Below, one piece after another: positions 8,442-20,300 of a DNA stretch of 64,000 nucleotides. The notes beneath the pieces were generated by a model. The model made no database searches and was not told where the DNA came from. It worked only from the letters and a program-made list of their open reading frames with translations. The stretch lies in NCBI RefSeq assembly GCF_053078305.1, contig NZ_CP166879.1; one strand, given 5' to 3'. The translations under genes were made by a program, and so were the position numbers. The stretch's first letter is position 1. Every line of letters starts with the position of its first letter.

Positions 8442-8921
8442 ATGAGTTCTGATTACGCAGGAGAACTCATGATCTGGATAATGCTCGCCACGCTGGCGGT
8501 AGTGTTTGTGGTTGGTTTTCGGGTGCTGACATCCGGGGCCAGAAAAGCGATTCGCCGTCTCAGCGATCGGCTGAATATCGATGTCGTACCCGTGGAGTCG
8601 ATGGTCGATCAAATGGGAAAGTCAGCTGGTGACGAATTTTTACGTTATTTGCATCGTCCGGATGAGTCGCACCTGCAAAACGCCGCGCAGGTGTTGCTCA
8701 TCTGGCAAATTGTCATTGTCGATGGTAGCGAACAGAACCTGCTGCAATGGCATCGGATTTTACAAAAAGCCCGCCTTGCCGCGCCGATTACCGATGCTCA
8801 GGTCAGGCTGGCGCTGGGTTTTCTGCGCGAAACTGAACCTGAAATGCAGGATATTAATGCTTTTCAGATGCGCTATAACGCATTCTTTCAGCCTGCCGAG
8901 GGCGTTCACTGGCTGCATTAA
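8442..8921 (+). CDS. yicN: Inner-membrane protein YicN (DUF1198)
   Basis: ORF translation ...MIWIMLATLAVVFVVGFRVLTSGARKAIRRL...; start codon choice (8442 vs 8469) uncertain. Confidence 0.7.
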   Translation: MSSDYAGELMIWIMLATLAVVFVVGFRVLTSGARKAIRRLSDRLNIDVVPVESMVDQMGKSAGDEFLRYLHRPDESHLQNAAQVLLIWQIVIVDGSEQNLLQWHRILQKARLAAPITDAQVRLALGFLRETEPEMQDINAFQMRYNAFFQPAEGVHWLH

Positions 8922-8968
8922 AACCGCTTCGTCTTATCAGCCAACAGACCGTGCCTGACCTGTCGAGT

Positions 8969-8994
8969 GGATAAGGCGTTCACGCCGCGTCCGG
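8969..8994. repeat. REP (repetitive extragenic palindromic) element
   Basis: ggataaggcgttcacgccgcgtccgg closely matches the E. coli REP consensus (GGATAAGGCGTTCACGCCGCATCCGG), just downstream of yicN. Confidence 0.45.
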
Positions 8995-9035
8995 TATCGG
9001 AACTGACAGTAGGTGACGCATTATCTACGTTCTAT

Positions 9036-9359
9036 TTACAGCAGCACATCCAGCCCGTGTTTTTGCACAATGCTGAGCAGTTTTAATGAAATGCCATTGG
9101 GGCGTTTAGCGCCACTTTCCCATTTTTGTACAGTTGAAACGCTGGTATTGAGATAGTGAGCGAAGACGGGCTGACTCACTTTTAATTTTTCCCGCAGTGC
9201 TTTTATCTCAACAGGTTGTAAGTCTTGCACGCTGGTCAGGCAGGCTTTGTCAAAAGTACGCATTGTTTCGGCAGAAATAGCATCGACGCTGGACAATCCA
9301 GCCGCTGCGCTGTGAATAGCCTCAAATGCAGGACTTTTAAATTTAGTTTTTGCAGTCAT
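9036..9359 (-). CDS. XRE-family HTH antitoxin (putative)
   Basis: 107-aa ORF with C-terminal helix-turn-helix LKALREKLKVSQPVFAHYLNTSVSTVQKWESG; translationally coupled to the upstream toxin-like ORF. Confidence 0.6.
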   Translation of the reverse strand: MTAKTKFKSPAFEAIHSAAAGLSSVDAISAETMRTFDKACLTSVQDLQPVEIKALREKLKVSQPVFAHYLNTSVSTVQKWESGAKRPNGISLKLLSIVQKHGLDVLL

Positions 9360-9702
9360 AGCAGATCTCTGTCAGTTCTTTAGTGTTAATCATTGCTGTT
9401 AGCTGGGCTTTCGTCAGGAAGGCATAATGCTTTGCAAGTTCACGAAACCCAGCCAGTTCCTGACTATTGATGTTCGACATATCCTGTTTTGCATATAAAA
9501 ACGTGTAAAACCAATTGCTTCCCCCTTTTGCCAGAATAATTGCACGCTCACGATTTTGGTGAAGGCGCTTTTTAAAAACGCCACCACCAAGTGCATCAGC
9601 TTTACCTTGCTCCGTTTCTAAAATGGCCCGGCACAACTCTTCATCTGTTATTGCATGAGACCTGGCTTCCCTTGCAAACCATTTGGTTTTAAACACGCGC
9701 AT
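9343..9702 (-). CDS. RelE/ParE-superfamily toxin (type II TA system, putative)
   Basis: 119-aa ORF MRVFKTKWFAREARSHAITDEELCRAILE...GGGVFKKRL...KGGSNWFYTFLYAKQD, pattern typical of RelE-like toxins; overlaps downstream HTH gene by 17 nt. Confidence 0.6.
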   Translation of the reverse strand: MRVFKTKWFAREARSHAITDEELCRAILETEQGKADALGGGVFKKRLHQNRERAIILAKGGSNWFYTFLYAKQDMSNINSQELAGFRELAKHYAFLTKAQLTAMINTKELTEICYDCKN

Positions 9703-9929
9703 ATCGTTGAGGTCCTGTTATTAAAGTATATCACCAAGTGCAATACTTTATCCCTTATTCCCAACCCAATCGCGAAAATGCATATCAGCTTGCCCTATGA
9801 TTTTTATTTCTTCGAGCAGCCTCGAACTTTTCCCACAACACCGTAAAAGTTGCAAAAACGTTAAATGTGTCACACATTTCAATGTTAAAGTGGTCGGCTT
9901 TTCCCCTGAAACATGCCACGGGTAACACC

Positions 9930-11114
9930 ATGAGTGAATTTATTGCCGAAAACCGCGGCGCGGATGCCATCACCCGACCGAACTGGTCAGCCGTTTTCTC
10001 GGTGGCGTTTTGCGTCGCCTGTCTGATTATCGTTGAGTTTTTGCCCGTCAGTTTGTTGACGCCAATGGCCCAGGATTTAGGCATTTCGGAAGGGGTTGCC
10101 GGGCAATCGGTGACCGTGACCGCCTTTGTGGCAATGTTTGCCAGTTTGTTTATTACCCAGACAATTCAGGCCACTGACCGCCGCTACGTTGTTATTTTGT
10201 TTGCCGTTTTGCTGACGCTCTCCTGTTTGCTGGTTTCCTTTGCTAACTCATTCAGTTTGCTTTTAATCGGTCGTGCCTGTCTGGGGCTGGCGCTGGGCGG
10301 GTTCTGGGCGATGTCGGCGTCGCTGACCATGCGTCTGGTGCCGCCGCGTACGGTGCCGAAGGCGCTGTCGGTGATCTTCGGCGCGGTTTCTATTGCGCTG
10401 GTGATTGCCGCGCCGTTGGGCAGTTTTTTAGGCGAGCTTATCGGTTGGCGCAATGTCTTTAATGCGGCGGCGGTGATGGGCGTGCTGTGTATTTTCTGGA
10501 TTATCAAATCATTGCCTTCACTGCCAGGCGAACCCTCGCATCAGAAACAAAATACTTTCCGCTTATTACAACGTCCGGGTGTGATGGCAGGGATGATCGC
10601 CATCTTCATGTCTTTCGCCGGGCAGTTTGCTTTCTTCACGTATATTCGCCCGGTGTACATGAACCTGGCGGGATTCGGTGTGGATGGCTTAACGCTGGTG
10701 CTGTTAAGTTTTGGTATCGCCAGCTTTATCGGTACGTCGCTTTCGTCGTTCATTCTTAAACGTTCGGTAAAACTGGCCTTAGCAGGCGCGCCGTTAATAC
10801 TGGCTGTGAGTGCGTTGGTGCTGACGTTGTGGGGAAGCGATAAAATCGTTGCTACCGGCGTGGCGATTATCTGGGGGCTAACTTTTGCATTGGTTCCTGT
10901 CGGCTGGTCAACGTGGATCACCCGCTCACTGGCCGATCAGGCAGAAAAAGCCGGGTCTATTCAGGTGGCGGTTATTCAGCTTGCTAATACCTGTGGTGCG
11001 GCAATCGGTGGTTATGCGCTGGATAATATTGGTCTGACTTCGCCGTTGATGTTGTCCGGCACATTGATGTTGCTGACGGCGTTATTGGTCACCGCAAAGG
11101 TGAAAATGAAGTAA
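9930..11114 (+). CDS. nepI: Purine ribonucleoside efflux pump NepI (MFS)
   Basis: ORF 9867..11114; conserved protein begins [27 protein letters not shown] (ATG 9930); 12-TM MFS. Confidence 0.85.
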
Positions 11115-11316: not shown

Positions 11317-14300
11317 ATGGCAGGGAAAGCGCATGGGAATGGCGATCGTCGGGGCGATAACACCATATGTGGATTGGGGGATCGTTTACGTCGTCTGACC
11401 GCCGGTATTTGCCTGATAACACAAACTATATTCCCTGTTATGGCCGCTGCCCCTACGCATATTAACCATGCGCATTCGGATACTGCCACGTCCCTGATCC
11501 TGCCGAACGTTAAAACTATTCCATATACCCTGGGGGCATTGGAATCGCCATCAACGGTCGCGGCACGCTTTGGTATCACCGTTGATGAATTACGTCGCCT
11601 GAATCAGTTTCGTACCTTTGCGCGGGGCTTTGACAATGTGCGTCAGGGCGATGAAATAGATGTGCCCCTCATTAACAGTAATAGCCCTGAAGCGCGCAAC
11701 CTGAAAGCAATGCAGATGGAGCGCGACGGCAAAGATCCGCAAATGCAGGTCGCGGAAGTGGCGCAGCAAAGCGGAACACTTTTAGCTCGCGATATGGACA
11801 GCGAACAGGCGGCGAGTATGGCGCGTGGCTGGGTGGCTTCTTCTGCATCTGCGCAGGCAACGGACTGGCTCAGTCGTTGGGGAACTGCCCGGGTATCTCT
11901 TGGTGTGGATGAAGATTTCAGCCTTAAAAGCTCTTCATTCGAATTTCTCCATCCCTGGTACGAAACGCCGGATAACCTGGTCTTCAGCCAGCACACACTT
12001 CACCGTACGGATGATCGCACTCAAACCAACCACGGTATCGGCTGGCGTTATTTCACCCCGAGCTGGATGTCTGGCGTCAATATGTTTATCGATCATGACC
12101 TGACCCGCTATCACACCCGAACCGGGATAGGCGTTGAATACTGGCGCGATTACCTGAAACTGAGCGGCAACGGTTATCTGCGCCTGAGTAACTGGCGTAG
12201 TGCACCGGAACTCGACCATGACTATGAAGCACGTCCAGCGAACGGTTGGGATCTTCGCGCCGAAGGCTGGTTACCGGCCTGGCCGCAGCTGGGCGGCAAG
12301 CTGGTCTATGAACAATATTATGGCGATGAAGTGGCGCTGTTTGGTAAAGACGAGCGACAAAATGATCCTCACGCGATTACCGCAGGTTTGAGTTACACCC
12401 CCGTTCCCTTAATCTCCTTTAGTGCCGAGCAACGGCAGGGCAAACAGGGAGAAAACGACACCCGAATTGGTATGGAGTTGACGTTGCAACCTGGTCATTC
12501 ACTGCAAAAACAGCTCGATCCAGCTGAAGTTGCAGCTCGGCGCAGCCTTGTGGGTAGTCGCTATGACCTGGTCGATCGTAATAACAATATCGTCCTCGAA
12601 TATCGCAAGAAAGAGCTGGTGCGGCTGACGCTGACCGATCCGTTGAAAGGCAAGCCGGGTGAGGTTAAATCGCTGGTTTCTTCCTTACAAACCAAATATG
12701 CGCTGAAAGGTTATGACATTGAAGCCGCCTCCCTGCAATCAGCGGGCGGAAAAGTAGCTGTTTCCGGCAAGGATATTCAGGTCACTATTCCTCCCTACCG
12801 ATTCACGGCAATGCCTGAAACCGACAACACTTACCCGATAGCGGTTACAGCGGAAGATTCGAAAGGAAATTTCTCCCGGCGTGAAGAAAGTATGGTGGTC
12901 GTGGAAAAACCCACATTAAGCCTCGCCGATTCAACGCTTTCTGTCGATCTGCAAATCCTGCTTGCTGATGGAAAATCAACCTCAATGCTGACCTATACCG
13001 CGCGAGATTCCAGCGGCAAGCCAATCCCAGGTATGACGTTAAAAACACAGGTGAAAGGTTTGCAGGATTTCGCCTTAAGCGAATGGAAAGACAACGGTAA
13101 CGGAACCTATACCCAAATAGTTACCGCCGGGAAGACGTCTGGCGCGTTATCGCTGATGCCGCAATTTAACGGCGACGATATCGCTAAGACGCCAGCGCTG
13201 ATTGCTATCGTGGCGAATACGGCATCCCGCGCTGACTCCACGATTGAGACAGACCAGGATAATTACGTCGCGGGTAAGCCGATAGTCGTTAAAGTGACCC
13301 TGAGAGATGATAACGGCAACGGGGTTACCGGACGAAAAGAACTTCTCAAACAAACCGTTAAAGTAGACAACACGAAGGCTGATGCCGTTAGTGCCTGGAC
13401 GGAAGAAAGTGAGGGAATTTACAAAGCAAGCTATACGGCCCATCTCATTGGCGACAAATTAACGGCCCAGCTGACGATGCCCGGCTGGCAAACCAAACAT
13501 TCGGATGCGTTCAGTATTGCGGGTGATAAAGATACCGCCAAAATCGCTGCGATGCAGATCACCGCGAATAACGCAGTTGCCAGACGCGATCACAATACCG
13601 TCGCTGTGACGGTCAGGGATGTGCATCAAAATTTACTGCAGGGACAAAATGTTACCTTCACGGTCGTGAATGGTGCGGCGGTTTTTGCCGATCCGAATGG
13701 CGGTATTGTGACGACAGATAAAGACGGGATAGCCAGCGTTAACCTTGCCAGTGACCAGGCGGTAAACAGTCTTATCAAGGCCGAGATCAATGGCAGTAGT
13801 CAGTCTGTGGAAGTGAGCTTTATCACTGGCGATATCTCGCAGCTGACCTCCACCATCAAGACGGACGATGTGTCATACACTGCGGGTGGCAAGATAAAAG
13901 TGTCCGTCACCCTTATGGATGAGCAGAAAAACCTGGTGAAAGGGATGGCTTCGCTGCTGGCGGGTAGCGGTGTGGTCGAGGTGAGCGGTACAGATAAAAA
14001 TGAAACGGGTAACTGGAGCGAAGAGTCTGACGGCGTTTACACCACCACCCGAACCGCGAAGATTGCTGGCGATCGCCATTACGCCACGCTGAAACTATCG
14101 ACATGGAGTAGCGCGCAGCAATCCGATGCGTATGCCATCCGCGAAAGCGGAGCTGTGCTGGCTTATTCCTCCATCGTTACCGACAAAACGACCTACACCG
14201 CGGGCGGCGTGATAAAAGTTACGGTAACACTCAAGGATAGCTATGAAAACCTGGTCGGGGGGCAACGAGACGCTATCAACCTGGCTATCCAGCTGCCAAA

Positions 14301-17300
14301 TACAAAAGCGGAAAGCATCGCCTGGAATGAAGATCAAAAAGGAATTTATACCGCAACGTATACCGCCTTACTCCCTGGCACCGGTTTAAAAGCACAGCTA
14401 CAGATGTCCGACTGGGCGAGCGCTCTGACTTCAAATGATTACAGTATTAGTGGCGATGCCGCCAGCGCACAAATTGTCGCGATGCAAGTGACAACGGGTA
14501 ACCCGGATGTGCTGGCGAATGGCAGCGATCGACATACGGTGAATGTCCGGGTGGAAGATCAGTTTGGCAATGTGCTGCCGGAGCAGACCGTCACCTTTAC
14601 GGTGACGAAGGGGGCGGCTGTATTTGCCAATGCAGGGCAGAGCGCAGATATCAGGACGGATGCGCATGGTATGGCAGAGGTTGATCTGAGCAGTACCGTA
14701 GCGGATGCCAGCACTGTTGAGGCTAAGGTCAATCAAAGCAGCGATAGTAAAACGGTGAACTTTGTTGCTGATGTCAGCACGGCGCAGATCGCTGATCTGG
14801 TGGTCATTAAGGATGGCTCAGTGGCAGACGGTTCGACGGCGAACACGCTGCGGGTGAGGGTGACGGATGCGTTCGGTAATGCGCTGGACGGGCAGACGGT
14901 CAGCGTGTTGGCGGACAACAGCGCAACGGTCGCTCCGACGGTTATCACCGAGCCGGACGGGACGGTGGAGATCTCTGTTACCAGCCAGACGGCGGGAGTC
15001 AGTGCGGTCACCGCCAGTATCAACAACAGCAGCCTGAGCCGGAACGTGACGTTTGTTGCCGATGTCAGGACGGCGAAGATCGCTGATCTGGTGGTGATGC
15101 AGGACGGCTCAGTGGCAGATGGCACGACGGCGAACACGCTGCGGGCGAGGGTGACCGATGCGTTCGGCAATGCGCTTGCCGGGCAGACGGTCAGCGTGAC
15201 TGCAGGCAACAGCGCAACGGTCGCTTCGACAGTGACCACAAAGCCGGACGGCACGGTGGAGATCAGTGTCACCAGCCAGACGGCGGGAGTCAGTACTGTC
15301 ACCGCCAGCATCAACAGCAGCAGTCAGAGCCGGGATGTGACGTTTGTCGCTGATGTCAGGACGGCGAAGATCGCGGACCTGGTGGTCACCCGGGATAACT
15401 CAGTGGCAGACGCTTCGACGGCGAATACGCTGCAGGTGAAGGTCACCGATGCTAACGGTAATACGCTTGCCGGGCAGACGGTCAGCGTGACTGCAGGCAA
15501 CAGCGCAACGGTCGCTTCGACGGTGACCACAAAGCCGGACGGGACGGTGGAGATCAGTGTCACCAGTCAGACGGCGGGGAGCAGTACTGTCACTGCCAGC
15601 ATCAACAGCAGCAGCCTGAGCCGGAACGTGACGTTTATTGCGGATGTCAGGACGGCGCAGATCGCGGATCTGGTGGTCATTAAGGATGGTTCAGAGGCGG
15701 ACGGTGCGACGGCGAACACGCTGCGGGCGAGGGTGACCGATGCGTTCGGGAATGCGCTTGCCGGGCAGACGGTCAGCGTGTTGGCGGACAACGGCGCAAC
15801 GGTCGCTTCGACGGTCACCACAGGGCCGGACGGCACGGTGGAGATTTCTGTCATCAGCCAGACAGCCGGAATCAGTGCGGTCACTGCCAGCATCAACAGC
15901 AGCAGTCAGAGCCGGGACGTGACATTTATCGCCGATGTCAGGACGGCGCAGATCGCGGAGCTGGTGGTTATTAAGGATGGTTCAGAGGCAGACGGTGCGA
16001 CGGCGAACACGCTGCAGGTGAAGGTCACCGATGCTAACGGCAATGCGCTTGCCGGGCAGACGGTCAGCGTGTTGGCGGACAACGGCGCAACGACTGCCCC
16101 GACGGTTATCACCGAGCCGGACGGTAAGGTGGAGATCTCTGTTACCAGTCAGACGGCGGGAGTCAGTGCAGTCACTGCCAGCATCAACAACAGCACCCTG
16201 AGCCAGAACGTGATGTTTATCGCCGATATCAGGACGGCGCAGATCGCGGAGCTGGTGGTTATTAAGGATGGTTCAGAGGCAGACGGTGCGACGGCGAATA
16301 CGCTGCAGGTGAAGGTCACCGATGCTAACGGCAATGCGCTTGCCGGGCAGACGGTCAGCGTGTTGGCGGATAACGGCGCAACGGTCGCTTCGACGATGAC
16401 CACAAAGCCGGATGGCACGGTGGAAATCAGTGTCACCAGCCAGACGGCGGGCACCAGTTCGGTCACCGCCAGCATCAACAACAGCAGTCAGAGCCGGGAT
16501 GTGACATTTATCGCGGATGTCAGGACGGCGCAGATCGCGGACCTGGAGGTCATTAAGGATGGTTCAGAGGCGGACGGTTCGACGGCGAACGCGCTGCGTG
16601 CGAGGGTGACCGATGCGTTCGGTAATACGCTTGCCGGGCAGACGGTCAGCGTGTTGGCGGACAACGGCGCAACGGTCACTCCGACGGTCATCACAGGGCC
16701 GGACGGCACGGTGGAGATCTCTGTCACCAGTCAGACAGCCGGAATCAGTGCGGTCACTGCCAGCATCAACAGCAGCAGTCAGAGCCGGGACGTGACATTT
16801 ATCGCCGATGTCAGGACGGCGCAGATCGCGGATCTGGTGGTCATTAAGGATGGTTCAGAGGCGGACGGTTCGACGGCGAACACGCTGCGGGCGAGGGTAA
16901 CCGATGCGTTCGGTAATGCGCTTGCCGGGCAGACGGTGAGCGTGTTGGCGGATAACGGCGCAACGGTCGCTCCGACGGTCATCACAGGGCCGGACGGTAC
17001 GGTGGAGATCAGTCTCACCAGCCAGACGGCGGGCACCAGTGTGGTCACTGTCAGCATCAACAACAGTAGCCTGAGCCAGAGCGTGACATTTATTGCCGAT
17101 GTCAGGACGGCGAAGATCGCGGATCTGGTGGTCATTAAGGACGGCTCAGTGGCAGATGGCGCGACGGCGAACACGCTGCGGGTGAGGGTCACCGATGCGT
17201 TCGGTAATACGCTTGCCGGGCAGACGGTCAGCGTGACGGCAGGCAACAGTGCAATGGTCGCTTCGACTGTCATCACAGGGCCGGACGGCACGGTGGAGAT

Positions 17301-20300
17301 CTCAGTCACCAGCCAGACCGCCGGAACCAGTACAGTCACCGCCAGCATCAACAACAGCAGCCAGAGCCGAAACGTGACGTTTACTGCCGATGTCAGGACG
17401 GCGCAGATCGCGGAGCTGGAAGTGACACAGGATAACGCAGTAGCAGACGGCGCAATGGCGAATATGCTGCGGGCGAGGGTGACCGATGCGTTCGGTAATA
17501 CGCTTGCCGGGCAGACGGTCAGCGTGACGGCAGGCAACGGCGCAACGGTCACTCCGACGGTGACCACGCAGCCGGACGGCACGGTGGAGATCTCTGTCAC
17601 CAGTCAGACAGCCGGAATCAGTGCGGTCACTGCCAGCATCAACAGCAGCAGTCAGAGCCAGAGCGTGACGTTTGTCGCCGATATCAGGACGGCGCAGATC
17701 GCGGATCTGGTGGTCATTAAGGATGGTTCAGAGGCGGACGGTTCGACGGCGAACACGCTGCGGGTGAGGGTGACGGATGCGTTCGGTAATGCGCTGGACG
17801 GGCAGACGGTCAGCGTGTTGGCAGGCAACGGCGCAACGGTGTCTCCGACGGTCATCACAGGCCCGGACGGCACGGTGGAGATCTCTGTCACCAGCCAGAC
17901 GGCGGGGATCAGTGCAGTCACTGCAACCATCAACAGCAGCAGCCAGAGCCGGAACGTGACGTTTATCGCCGATGTCAGGACGGCGCAGATCACGGTGCTG
18001 GAAGTGACGCAGGATAACGCAGTAGCAGACGGCGCAATGGCGAATACGTTGCGGGTGAGGGTGACCGATGCGTTCGGCAATGCGCTTGCCGGGCAGACGG
18101 TCAGCGTGTTGACGGACAACGGCGCAACGACTGCCCCGACGGTGATCACAGAGCCGGACGGCACGGTGGAAATCAGTGTCACCAGCCAGACGGCGGGGAT
18201 CAGTACTGTCACTGCTAGCATCAACAACAGCAGCCTGAGCCAGAGCGTGATGTTTATCGCCGATATCAGGACGGCGCAGATCGCGGATCTGGTGGTCATT
18301 AAGGACGGCTCAGAGGCGGACGGGGCGACGGCGAACACGCTGCGGGCGAGGGTGACCGATGCGTTCGGTAATACGCTTGCCGGACAGACGGTCAGCGTGT
18401 TGGCGGACAACGGTGCAACAGTTGCCCCGACGGTGATCACAGAGCCGGACGGCACGGTGGCGATCTCTGTCACCAGCCAGACTGCCGGAATCAGTGCGGT
18501 CACCGCCAGCATCAACAGCAGCAACGCGAGCAGGAACGTGATGTTTATCGCCGATATCAGGACGGCGCAGATCGCGGATCTGGGGGTTATTAAGGACGGC
18601 TCAGTGGCAGACGGTTCGACGGCGAACACGCTGCGGGCGAGGGTCACCGATGCGTTCGGGAATGCGCTTGCCGGGCAGACGGTCAGCGTGTTGGCGGACA
18701 ACAGCGCAACGGTTGCCCCGACGGTGATTACAGAGCCGGACGGTATGGTGGAGATCCCTGTCACCAGCCAGACGGCAGGAATCAGTGTGGTCACCGCCAG
18801 CATCAACAGCAGCAGTCAAAGCCGGGATGTGACGTTTATCGCCGATATCAGGACGGCGCAGATCGCGGACCTGGTGGTCATTAAGGACGGCTCAGTGGCT
18901 GACGGCGCAATGGCGAATATGCTGCGGGCAAGGGTGACCGATGCGTTCGGTAATGCGCTGAATGGACAGACGGTCAGCGTGACGGCAGGCAACGGCGCAA
19001 CGGTCACTCCGACGGTCACCACGCAGCCGGACGGCACGGTGGAGATCCCTGTCACCAGCCAGACGGCAGGCACCACTGCGGTCACTGCCAACATTAACAG
19101 CAGCAGCCAGAGCCGGAACGTCACGTTTATTGCGGATGTCAGGACGGCGAAGATCGCTGATCTGGTAGTCACCCGGGATAACTCAGTGGCAGACGGTGCA
19201 ATGGCGAATACGCTGCAAGTGAAGGTCACCGATGCATTCGGGAATGCGCTGAATGGGCAGACGGTCAGCGTATCGACAGACAACAGCGCAATGGTCACTC
19301 CGACGGTGACCACGCAGCCGGATGGCACGGTGGAGATCAGTGTCACCAGTCAGACGGCGGGGATCAGTACAGTCACTGCCAGCATCAACAGCAGCAGCCA
19401 GAGCCGGGATGTGACGTTTATCGCCGATGTCAGAACGGCGCAGATCGCGAGTCTGGAGGTGACGCAGGATAACGCCGTGGCTGACGGCGCAATGGCGGAT
19501 ATGCTGCGGGCGAGGGTCACCGATGCGTTCGGCAATGCGCTTGGCGGACAGACGGTCAGCGTGACGGCAGGCAACGGCGCAACGGTTGCCCCGACGGTGA
19601 TCACAGAGCCGGACGGCACGGCGGAGATCAGTGTCACCAGCCAGACGGCGGGAGTCAGTGCAGTCACCGCCAGCATCAACAGCAGCAGCCAGAGCCGGGA
19701 TGTGACGTTTATCGCCGATGTCAGGACGGCGAAGATCGCGGATCTGGTGGTCATTAAGGACGGCTCAGTGGCAGACGGCGCAATGGCGAACACGCTGCAG
19801 GTGAAGGTCACCGATGCTAACGGCAATGTGCTTGCCGGGCAGACGGTCAGCGTGTTCGCAGGCAACGGTGCCACGACTGCTCCGACGGTCACCACGCAGC
19901 CGGACGGCACGGTGGAGATCTCTGTCACCAGCCAGACGGCAGGCACCAGTGCGGTCACTGCCAGCATTAACAGCAGCAGCCAGAGCCGGGATGTGACGTT
20001 TATCGCCGATGTCAGAACGGCGAAGATCGCTGATCTGGTGGTCATTAAGGACGGCTCAGTGGCTGACGGCGCAATGGCGAACATGCTGCAGGTAAAGGTT
20101 ACCGATGCTAACGGCAATGTGCTTGCCGGGCAGACGGTCAGCATGATGGCAGGCAACGGTGCAACGGTTGCCCCGACGGTGATTACAGAGCCGGACGGTA
20201 CGGTGGAGATCCCTGTCACCAGCCAGACGGCGGGAGCCAGTGCGGTCACCGCCAGTATCAACAGCAGCAACGCGAGCCGGAACGTGACGTTTGTTGCCGA

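Follow-up and report, generated by a model that had tools for sequence, protein, structure and literature searches.

Positions 9036-9702 of a 64,000-nucleotide (nt) stretch of Escherichia coli DNA (NCBI RefSeq assembly GCF_053078305.1, contig NZ_CP166879.1; "the window" is this whole stretch) hold two small overlapping genes that are quite likely a functional type II toxin-antitoxin operon of the same kind as HigBA2 of Vibrio cholerae and ToxP/AntitoxP of Coxiella burnetii. In Pfam family, fold, active-site equivalents, gene layout and antitoxin HTH, the pair has the features of this group. From the homologues we infer that the first protein is toxic and cleaves RNA, and that the second neutralises it and binds DNA. 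A preliminary description of the locus, made from the sequence alone, proposed a RelE/ParE-like gene followed by an XRE-type helix-turn-helix (HTH) gene, similar to HigB/HigA modules in its toxin-first order, and inserted between yicN and nepI. The gene content is as described, and the HigB/HigA likeness can be refined to the HigB-2 branch, with V. cholerae HigBA2 and Coxiella ToxP/AntitoxP as the closest systems. The word "inserted" probably has the polarity wrong: the pair is nepI-adjacent in Citrobacter, Klebsiella and Salmonella and carries no marks of insertion, which points to retention here and deletion in K-12.

The pair is of an already known kind, annotated in about 1,700 RefSeq E. 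coli genomes. What is gained is a precise family assignment, to the HigB-2/ToxP branch instead of classical HigB, and a concrete prediction of operator and promoter. The locus also exemplifies how a chromosomal toxin-antitoxin pair can hold one site across genera of Enterobacteriaceae and then segregate in E. coli as a clean two-allele presence/absence polymorphism. K-12 offers a natural null background for the pair.

Two overlapping genes with the toxin first

The two open reading frames (ORFs) listed for the region together cover exactly 9036-9702, as the preliminary description had it. That description gave no strand; both genes lie on the minus strand and overlap by 17 nt. The features are the following.

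9343..9702, minus strand: toxin gene, 119 amino acids (aa), ATG start; ORF for a HigB-2 / PF06296 protein of the RelE fold
9036..9359, minus strand: antitoxin gene, 107 aa, ATG start; ORF with a conserved N-terminal region (residues ~1-45) and a C-terminal XRE-type HTH (~49-105)
9343..9359, minus strand: 17-nt overlap of the toxin 3' end and the antitoxin 5' end, from the ORF coordinates

On one side the flanking gene is yicN (DUF1198; 8469-8921, plus strand), with adeQ, also on the plus strand, on that side as well. The other flank is nepI (9930-11114, plus strand), from which the pair is divergent in transcription. Two small co-oriented overlapping genes, toxin first, is the layout common to all homologous loci. 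In the enterobacterial loci that we read, the 17-nt overlap is identical (8/8) and the ORF lengths are likewise kept; the overlap probably couples the translation of toxin and antitoxin. Judged by the PF06296 and HTH_3 matches, the conserved length and overlap, and the low ratio of nonsynonymous to synonymous divergence (dN/dS), these genes are far beyond chance ORFs.

The toxin is assigned to the HigB-2 branch

The profile search proposed in the preliminary description bears out its RelE/ParE-like call. The toxin matches Pfam PF06296 over the full length of the profile (positions 1-120 of 120; 142.6 bits for a cutoff of 27, E 8.8e-42), and it matches no other Pfam family at E <=0.1, with PF05015, PF09907 and PF05016 all absent. 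A 2025 survey of the superfamily has HigB2 as the named member of PF06296 (Pfam name "RelE"), and gives ribosome-dependent mRNA degradation as the activity of the family and toxin-then-antitoxin as its gene order. V. cholerae HigB2 itself (a sequence identical to PDB 5JA9 chain C) matches PF06296 above threshold, weakly, with 34.5 bits over positions 8-96. By its sequence, the toxin is a core member of PF06296, in the HigB-2 branch of the RelE/ParE superfamily.

The predicted structure agrees with this assignment. An AlphaFold2 (AF2) model of the toxin built on 31 homologues has a predicted local distance difference test score (pLDDT) of 87 and a predicted template modelling score of 0.80, and according to the Foldseek comparison with PDB it has the RelE/BECR fold, which consists of an N-terminal strand, two helices, an antiparallel sheet and a C-terminal helix. 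Ranks 1-10 of that comparison are all V. cholerae HigB2, with probability 1.0, template modelling (TM) scores of 0.46-0.61 and about 20% identity. Next in rank come M. tuberculosis HigB1, S. pneumoniae HigB and YoeB, which are RelE-type mRNases.

Combining the hhalign alignment to HigB2 with the BLASTP alignment to ToxP, the toxin residues K44, R46, R53, Y70 and K72 are the equivalents of HigB2 K49, R51, R64, Y82 and K84, a mapping that is alignment-dependent because identity to HigB2 is low; the position of R53 is fixed by the alignment to ToxP. In HigB2, alanine substitutions of R51, R64, Y82 and K84 bring activity down 170- to 3000-fold, and K49 is also reckoned an active-site residue. Across 33 homologues, K44, R53 and K72 do not vary, R46 is kept in at least 90%, and position 70 is Y or F. 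The start of the protein, M-R-V-F-K-T, is kept in homologues from eight genera.

The antitoxin has a C-terminal HTH and a conserved N-terminal region

The second gene is an XRE-type HTH protein, as had been proposed, with Pfam HTH_3 at residues 52-96 (E 6.7e-8). Among PDB sequences, V. cholerae HigA-2 matches it best (E 9e-10, residues 46-102). In an AF2 model of toxin and antitoxin fused, residues 49-105 form a helical domain with pLDDT 73-85, and residues 1-30 have pLDDT below 50, compatible with disorder. Residues 1-45 are strongly conserved across genera, and can be aligned to AntitoxP from residue 5. The recognition helix, NTSVSTVQKWESG, is identical in eight enterobacterial pairs.

The HTH also resembles that of MqsA-type antitoxins, a candidate that we rejected. 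The matches to MqsA models are below threshold (26.2 bits for PF15731, cutoff 30; 41 bits for TIGR03830, cutoff 61.8) and, like those to NadS models, are limited to the HTH half. The protein holds one cysteine and no CxxC zinc-binding N-terminal domain, and the toxin falls outside the MqsR family. Among the PADLOC defence-system models, the toxin has no match and the antitoxin has generic HTH matches only.

A candidate operator over the -10 element

Upstream of the toxin gene, about 25 nt from its start codon, we find an inverted repeat that is conserved across loci, together with candidate promoter and ribosome-binding elements.

9722..9750 (19-bp core 9727-9745), minus strand: candidate operator palindrome TAAAGTATTGCAC-TTG-GTGATATACTTTA, identified as an inverted repeat with cross-locus conservation
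9725..9733, minus strand: candidate extended -10, TGaTATACT, within the right arm of the palindrome, read from the sequence
9713..9716, minus strand: Shine-Dalgarno-like AGGA, 10 nt before the toxin ATG; ACAGGA is conserved in enterobacterial loci

The palindrome has an invariant core, CAC-N3-GTGnTA, at a constant distance to the start codon in nine loci with otherwise unalignable surroundings. Besides that of E. coli, the nine comprise those of Citrobacter, Salmonella, Klebsiella, Dickeya, Yersinia and Morganella, one in Enterobacteriaceae at another site, and one on the Coxiella plasmid. In the 64-kb window, the motif T[AT]GCAC-N3-GTG[CA]TA has a single occurrence. The candidate operator shares its 19-bp span and its position over the -10 with the footprinted operator of HigA2. 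The toxP promoter of Coxiella is in register with it, reading TTGACA-17 nt-TATAGT, so that the operator core sits there between a perfect TTGACA and TATAGT. Both the promoter and the operator upstream of the toxin are predicted from this conservation.

The toxin coding sequence contains 11 nt that exactly repeat the operator core (CACCAAGTGCA; 9585-9595, compared with 9732-9742). We considered this copy as a second operator site and rejected it as a chance occurrence because it is absent from the O157 allele and from the other genera, and chance would give about 0.1 such repeats.

Two alleles in E. coli, and a probable old residence beside nepI

Alignment with K-12 confirms that yicN and nepI are adjacent there, as the preliminary description stated, and delimits the polymorphic segment.

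8997..9835, no strand: presence/absence segment of 839 bp, from the pairwise alignment with K-12
8944..8996, plus strand: palindromic element resembling a repetitive extragenic palindromic (REP) sequence, after yicN, at the left boundary and in both alleles; aligned with K-12 up to 8996

K-12 has an unrelated 41 bp in place of the 839-bp segment, whose left breakpoint abuts the REP-like element. The sole Rfam match in the region is a sub-threshold one to naRNA4, a REP-derived nucleoid-associated RNA, at 8965-9029 on the plus strand (33 bits, for a gathering threshold of 59.5); it mirrors the REP-like palindrome.

The comparison of presence and absence across E. coli genomes, another of the checks that had been suggested, finds the 839-bp segment in 1,716 of 5,426 complete genomes (~32%), O157:H7, O145 and ST131 among them; it is chromosomal and at the nepI-yicN site throughout. 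The alternative 41-bp sequence is found, in single copy, in 3,661. The locus thus has two mutually exclusive alleles in E. coli. Of 20 genomes sampled, 19 have both genes within the matched segment, the one exception being an assembly artefact, and RefSeq names them "type II toxin-antitoxin system RelE/ParE family toxin" and "helix-turn-helix domain-containing protein". The only match at about 80% identity, in E. coli strain HS-02 (L003 3000-3979), could have been taken for a divergent allele; its long homopolymer runs and annotated frameshifts identify it as an artefact of a low-quality assembly.

In other genera, the pair occupies the same place. Citrobacter koseri and Klebsiella oxytoca have it between nepI and yicN, and in Salmonella it is a neighbour of nepI. 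Protein identities across genera are 67-72% for the toxin and 80-85% for the antitoxin, of the same order as those of the flanking NepI (80-88%) and YicN (71-83%). Between genera, dN is 0.06-0.31 and dS is saturated; dN/dS, where computable, is 0.03-0.13, and it is about 0.16-0.19 within E. coli. Purifying selection on both genes is strong. The polymorphic segment has no boundary or terminal repeats, no target-site duplication, and no integrase or other recombinase. Since the pair stands beside nepI in other genera, dS is saturated, and marks of insertion are lacking, the K-12 state is better read as a deletion. We therefore hold it probable that the pair has long resided between nepI and yicN in Enterobacteriaceae, and that K-12-type lineages lost it.

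Against this stands the 41-bp filler, which has no identifiable origin and leaves the deletion scenario incompletely explained. Its alignment score to the module and to the other genera is 13, for shuffled sequences with a mean of 10 and a maximum of 15. A repeat family as its source is ruled out by its single-copy occurrence. A further caveat to the old residence is the mobility of the family over longer times: it also occupies a pabA-[pair]-fic site, an integrase island, a plasmid-like contig, and many plasmids of alpha- and gammaproteobacteria. Searched with tblastn, plasmids yield homologues on 183 of them, 19 from Coxiella.

Another conserved chromosomal site, adjacent to pabA, holds a paralogous pair whose toxin is 66-72% identical (L015/L016 3001-3667, L011 4001-4667). 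In Enterobacteriaceae this second-site pair lies between pabA and fic-yhfG; in Dickeya it has argD-pabA on one side and an AraC-family gene on the other. At 82.5% identity, the Dickeya copy is closer to the nepI-site copy of Citrobacter than the nepI-site copies are among themselves, which hints at exchange between sites or taxa.

Proposed mechanism

In the mechanism that we propose, one promoter upstream of 9702 would drive the toxin and then the antitoxin on the minus strand. The toxin would most likely enter the ribosomal A site and cleave translated mRNA by means of K44, R46, R53, Y70 and K72, and the antitoxin would most likely neutralise it through the conserved N-terminal region. An antitoxin dimer, with its C-terminal HTH most likely placed on the single 19-bp palindrome over the -10, would repress the operon. 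The pair would have resided for long in the nepI-yicN interval, with about two thirds of E. coli, K-12 included, having lost it.

Contrary observations and other explanations

Several observations weigh against a functional operon of the HigBA2 kind. Direct similarity to HigB2 is at the limit of detection: phmmer searches of the PDB sequences with the toxin and with a 31-sequence clade profile return no real match and do not detect HigB2, and the hhalign alignment of toxin and HigB2 is weak, with a probability of 4%. As a result, the residue mapping to HigB2 rests on co-membership in the Pfam family, the fold match and the Coxiella bridge. One of the five mapped residues, Y70, is replaced by F in some homologues. 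The AF2 model of a toxin-GS30-antitoxin fusion, with a partly paired alignment, folds both domains and gives no confident interface between them. A generic scan for consensus promoters and terminators has no match at the toxin upstream region because the -35 is weak. Our literature searches for this E. coli locus found no publication. The remaining contrary observations concern the divergence of the E. coli copy and the shape of the toxin, and we take them up with the alternatives that they favour.

One alternative is that the module is attenuated or decaying, such that the E. coli toxin is weak or barely expressed, the pair persists chiefly because the HTH protein is a harmless autorepressor, and it is heading to the loss that K-12-type strains already show. 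It would fit with the E. coli toxin being the most diverged of the nepI-site copies (67-72% identical to those of other genera, which are 72-83% identical among themselves), with the operator arms, both of which in E. coli deviate from an otherwise perfect palindrome and are less symmetric than in other genera, and with the absence of the pair from two thirds of the genomes. It would also fit with the O157:H7 allele, in which the toxin start codon has changed from ATG to ATA (strain 9234, L001 4777-4782, equivalent to window 9700-9702). Because the ATG is lost there, the Prokaryotic Genome Annotation Pipeline calls a GTG two codons downstream, for a protein of 117 aa. With G61V and L89I in addition, the O157:H7 allele may be an attenuated toxin. 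For the pair in general we consider decay unlikely. The five active-site equivalents are all intact, and the dN/dS within E. coli given above and the 0.04-0.12 obtained against other genera are those of constrained genes. In the window copy, the ATG, the Shine-Dalgarno sequence and the -10 are all intact, and the sampled genomes retain both genes apart from the one misassembled case.

Further alternatives concern what the toxin acts upon. The enterobacterial toxins have a C-terminal helix-strand extension (~98-115, with the motif KELxEI) that ToxP has too and HigB2 does not, and they have lost the 6-residue basic beta2-beta3 loop of both HigB2 and ToxP. Because of this extension and the loss of the loop, the enterobacterial toxins might engage the ribosome otherwise than HigB2 or hit a different partner and, separately, a regulatory link between the antitoxin and the divergent nepI, instead of mere inertia, might explain retention beside that gene in four genera; we regard this as quite unlikely.

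Alternatively, the RelE fold could serve a different target, with the toxin binding another factor instead of cleaving mRNA on the ribosome, as reported for SehA of Salmonella, which inhibits RNase III, and the C-terminal extension perhaps involved. SehA is a precedent, being a HigB-like toxin without RNase activity that depends on an extra C-terminal helix, and the toxin has its own extra helix and strand at 98-115 and no basic loop. SehA belongs to another branch of HigB, though, and its critical residues include Y53, D61, H88 and Y91, where positions 53, 61 and 88 here are R53, G61 and E88. Unlike SehA, the toxin has the full HigB2 catalytic set, and ToxP, which has the same C-terminal extension, inhibits cell-free translation. 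All this makes a target of the SehA type very unlikely.

That the toxin is a ParE-like poison of DNA gyrase instead of an mRNase is hardly credible, as only the generic RefSeq product name "RelE/ParE family toxin" and the fold shared by the superfamily speak for it, against the absence of a PF05016 match at E <=0.1, best fold matches to the mRNases HigB2, M. tuberculosis HigB1 and YoeB and a much lower rank, at E >0.5, for ParE structures, a HigA2-type HTH partner, and conserved RNase residues.

Wider neighbourhood

The nepI gene is 1,185 nt (394 aa) in the window and in the closest genome, and 1,191 nt in O157:H7; the window frame ends in ...KVKMK, two codons short of the 1,191-nt allele. Directly after nepI, window 11317-22740 (plus strand) and beyond holds a 3,807-aa ORF with about 28 near-identical tandem repeats of ~100 aa, at a position where O157:H7 has yicS and nlpA. 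The closest genome, with 99.7% identity over the compared segment, has this ORF annotated as the inverse autotransporter adhesin IatC, followed by the HilA-family regulator eilA and by type III secretion genes, such as that of an IpaD/SipD-like tip protein. On the other side, the uhpT-adeD interval of the closest genome (L012 5793-12710, upstream of window 7004) contains another DUF1198 (yicN-like) gene and, besides a truncated yicS, genes for a carbohydrate porin, a LacI regulator and a cellobiose-type phosphotransferase system with a family-1 glycoside hydrolase. Such a content is suggestive of an island, and of duplication or rearrangement in this neighbourhood.

Comparison with known systems

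The profile searches, in which the corresponding families have no matches, place the pair outside classical HigB, RelBE, MqsRA and ParDE. Each of the first three shares something with it. Classical HigBA, of Proteus Rts1 and of E. coli K-12 (HigB/YgjN-HigA), is also toxin-first, with a RelE-superfamily toxin and an HTH antitoxin; its toxins belong to other Pfam families, PF05015 and PF09907, which have no match in the toxin described here. The report of the HigB2 structure describes the Rts1 toxin as lacking helix alpha3, and the Rts1 antitoxin as fully folded and leaving the active site uncovered. E. coli RelBE has the same toxin fold and probably the same chemistry, and the active site of HigB2 has been described as almost identical to that of RelE. 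RelBE differs in being antitoxin-first, with a ribbon-helix-helix antitoxin, and RelE belongs to PF05016. MqsRA has the toxin-first order and the sub-threshold resemblance of the antitoxin HTH.

Salmonella SehAB is a chromosomal, toxin-first, Hig-like enterobacterial pair with an autorepressing HTH antitoxin. SehA has been described as 40% identical to E. coli HigB and as lacking the canonical active site, and it inhibits RNase III. We considered SehAB as the Salmonella orthologue and rejected it: it is of a different HigB branch, its residues do not match, and the true orthologue lies beside nepI. Two proteins named "HigB2" were likewise discarded as relatives, that of A. baumannii being a GP49-domain toxin outside PF06296, and that of Waddlia a match in name only.

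V. cholerae HigB2/HigA2 (VCA0468/VCA0469; PDB 5JA8, 5JAA, 8A0X) is similar in the Pfam family, the toxin fold and antitoxin HTH, for both of which it is the best match, the toxin-first order, the five active-site equivalents, and a single 19-bp palindrome over the -10, which is a footprinted operator there and a candidate operator here. HigB2 has been shown to cleave translated mRNA in a ribosome-dependent manner. It differs by a toxin identity of only ~20% and the lack of the C-terminal helix and strand. The HigA2 operator, TGTACGC-N5-GCGTACA, differs from the E. coli candidate, as do the base-contacting residues, which are R68, E71, N72 and R77 in HigA2 and S75, Q78, K79 and A84 in the E. 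coli antitoxin. The N-terminal regions of the two antitoxins have no detectable similarity.

The closest experimentally studied homologue is ToxP/AntitoxP (CBUA0028/CBUA0027) of the Coxiella burnetii plasmid QpH1. ToxP, from its internal Met31, aligns to toxin residues 1-114 with 31% identity (E 1e-18), and it matches PF06296 with 164.4 bits over the full length, the C-terminal helix-strand extension included. AntitoxP aligns to antitoxin residues 5-106 with 55% identity (E 1e-36), an alignment that takes in the N-terminal region as well as the recognition helix NTSVSTVxxWE. The toxin-first order is the same, and so is the CAC-N3-GTGATATA core over the -10 of the promoter. The differences are that ToxP keeps a basic beta2-beta3 loop, GKGKRGG, and the E. 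coli toxin has this loop shortened by 6 residues, that the Coxiella genes overlap by 4 nt and the E. coli genes by 17, and that ToxP/AntitoxP is plasmid-borne and serves plasmid maintenance, whereas the E. coli pair is chromosomal and syntenic across genera. ToxP is toxic and blocks cell-free translation, and AntitoxP rescues from it. AntitoxP binds ToxP, and both AntitoxP and the complex bind the toxP promoter.

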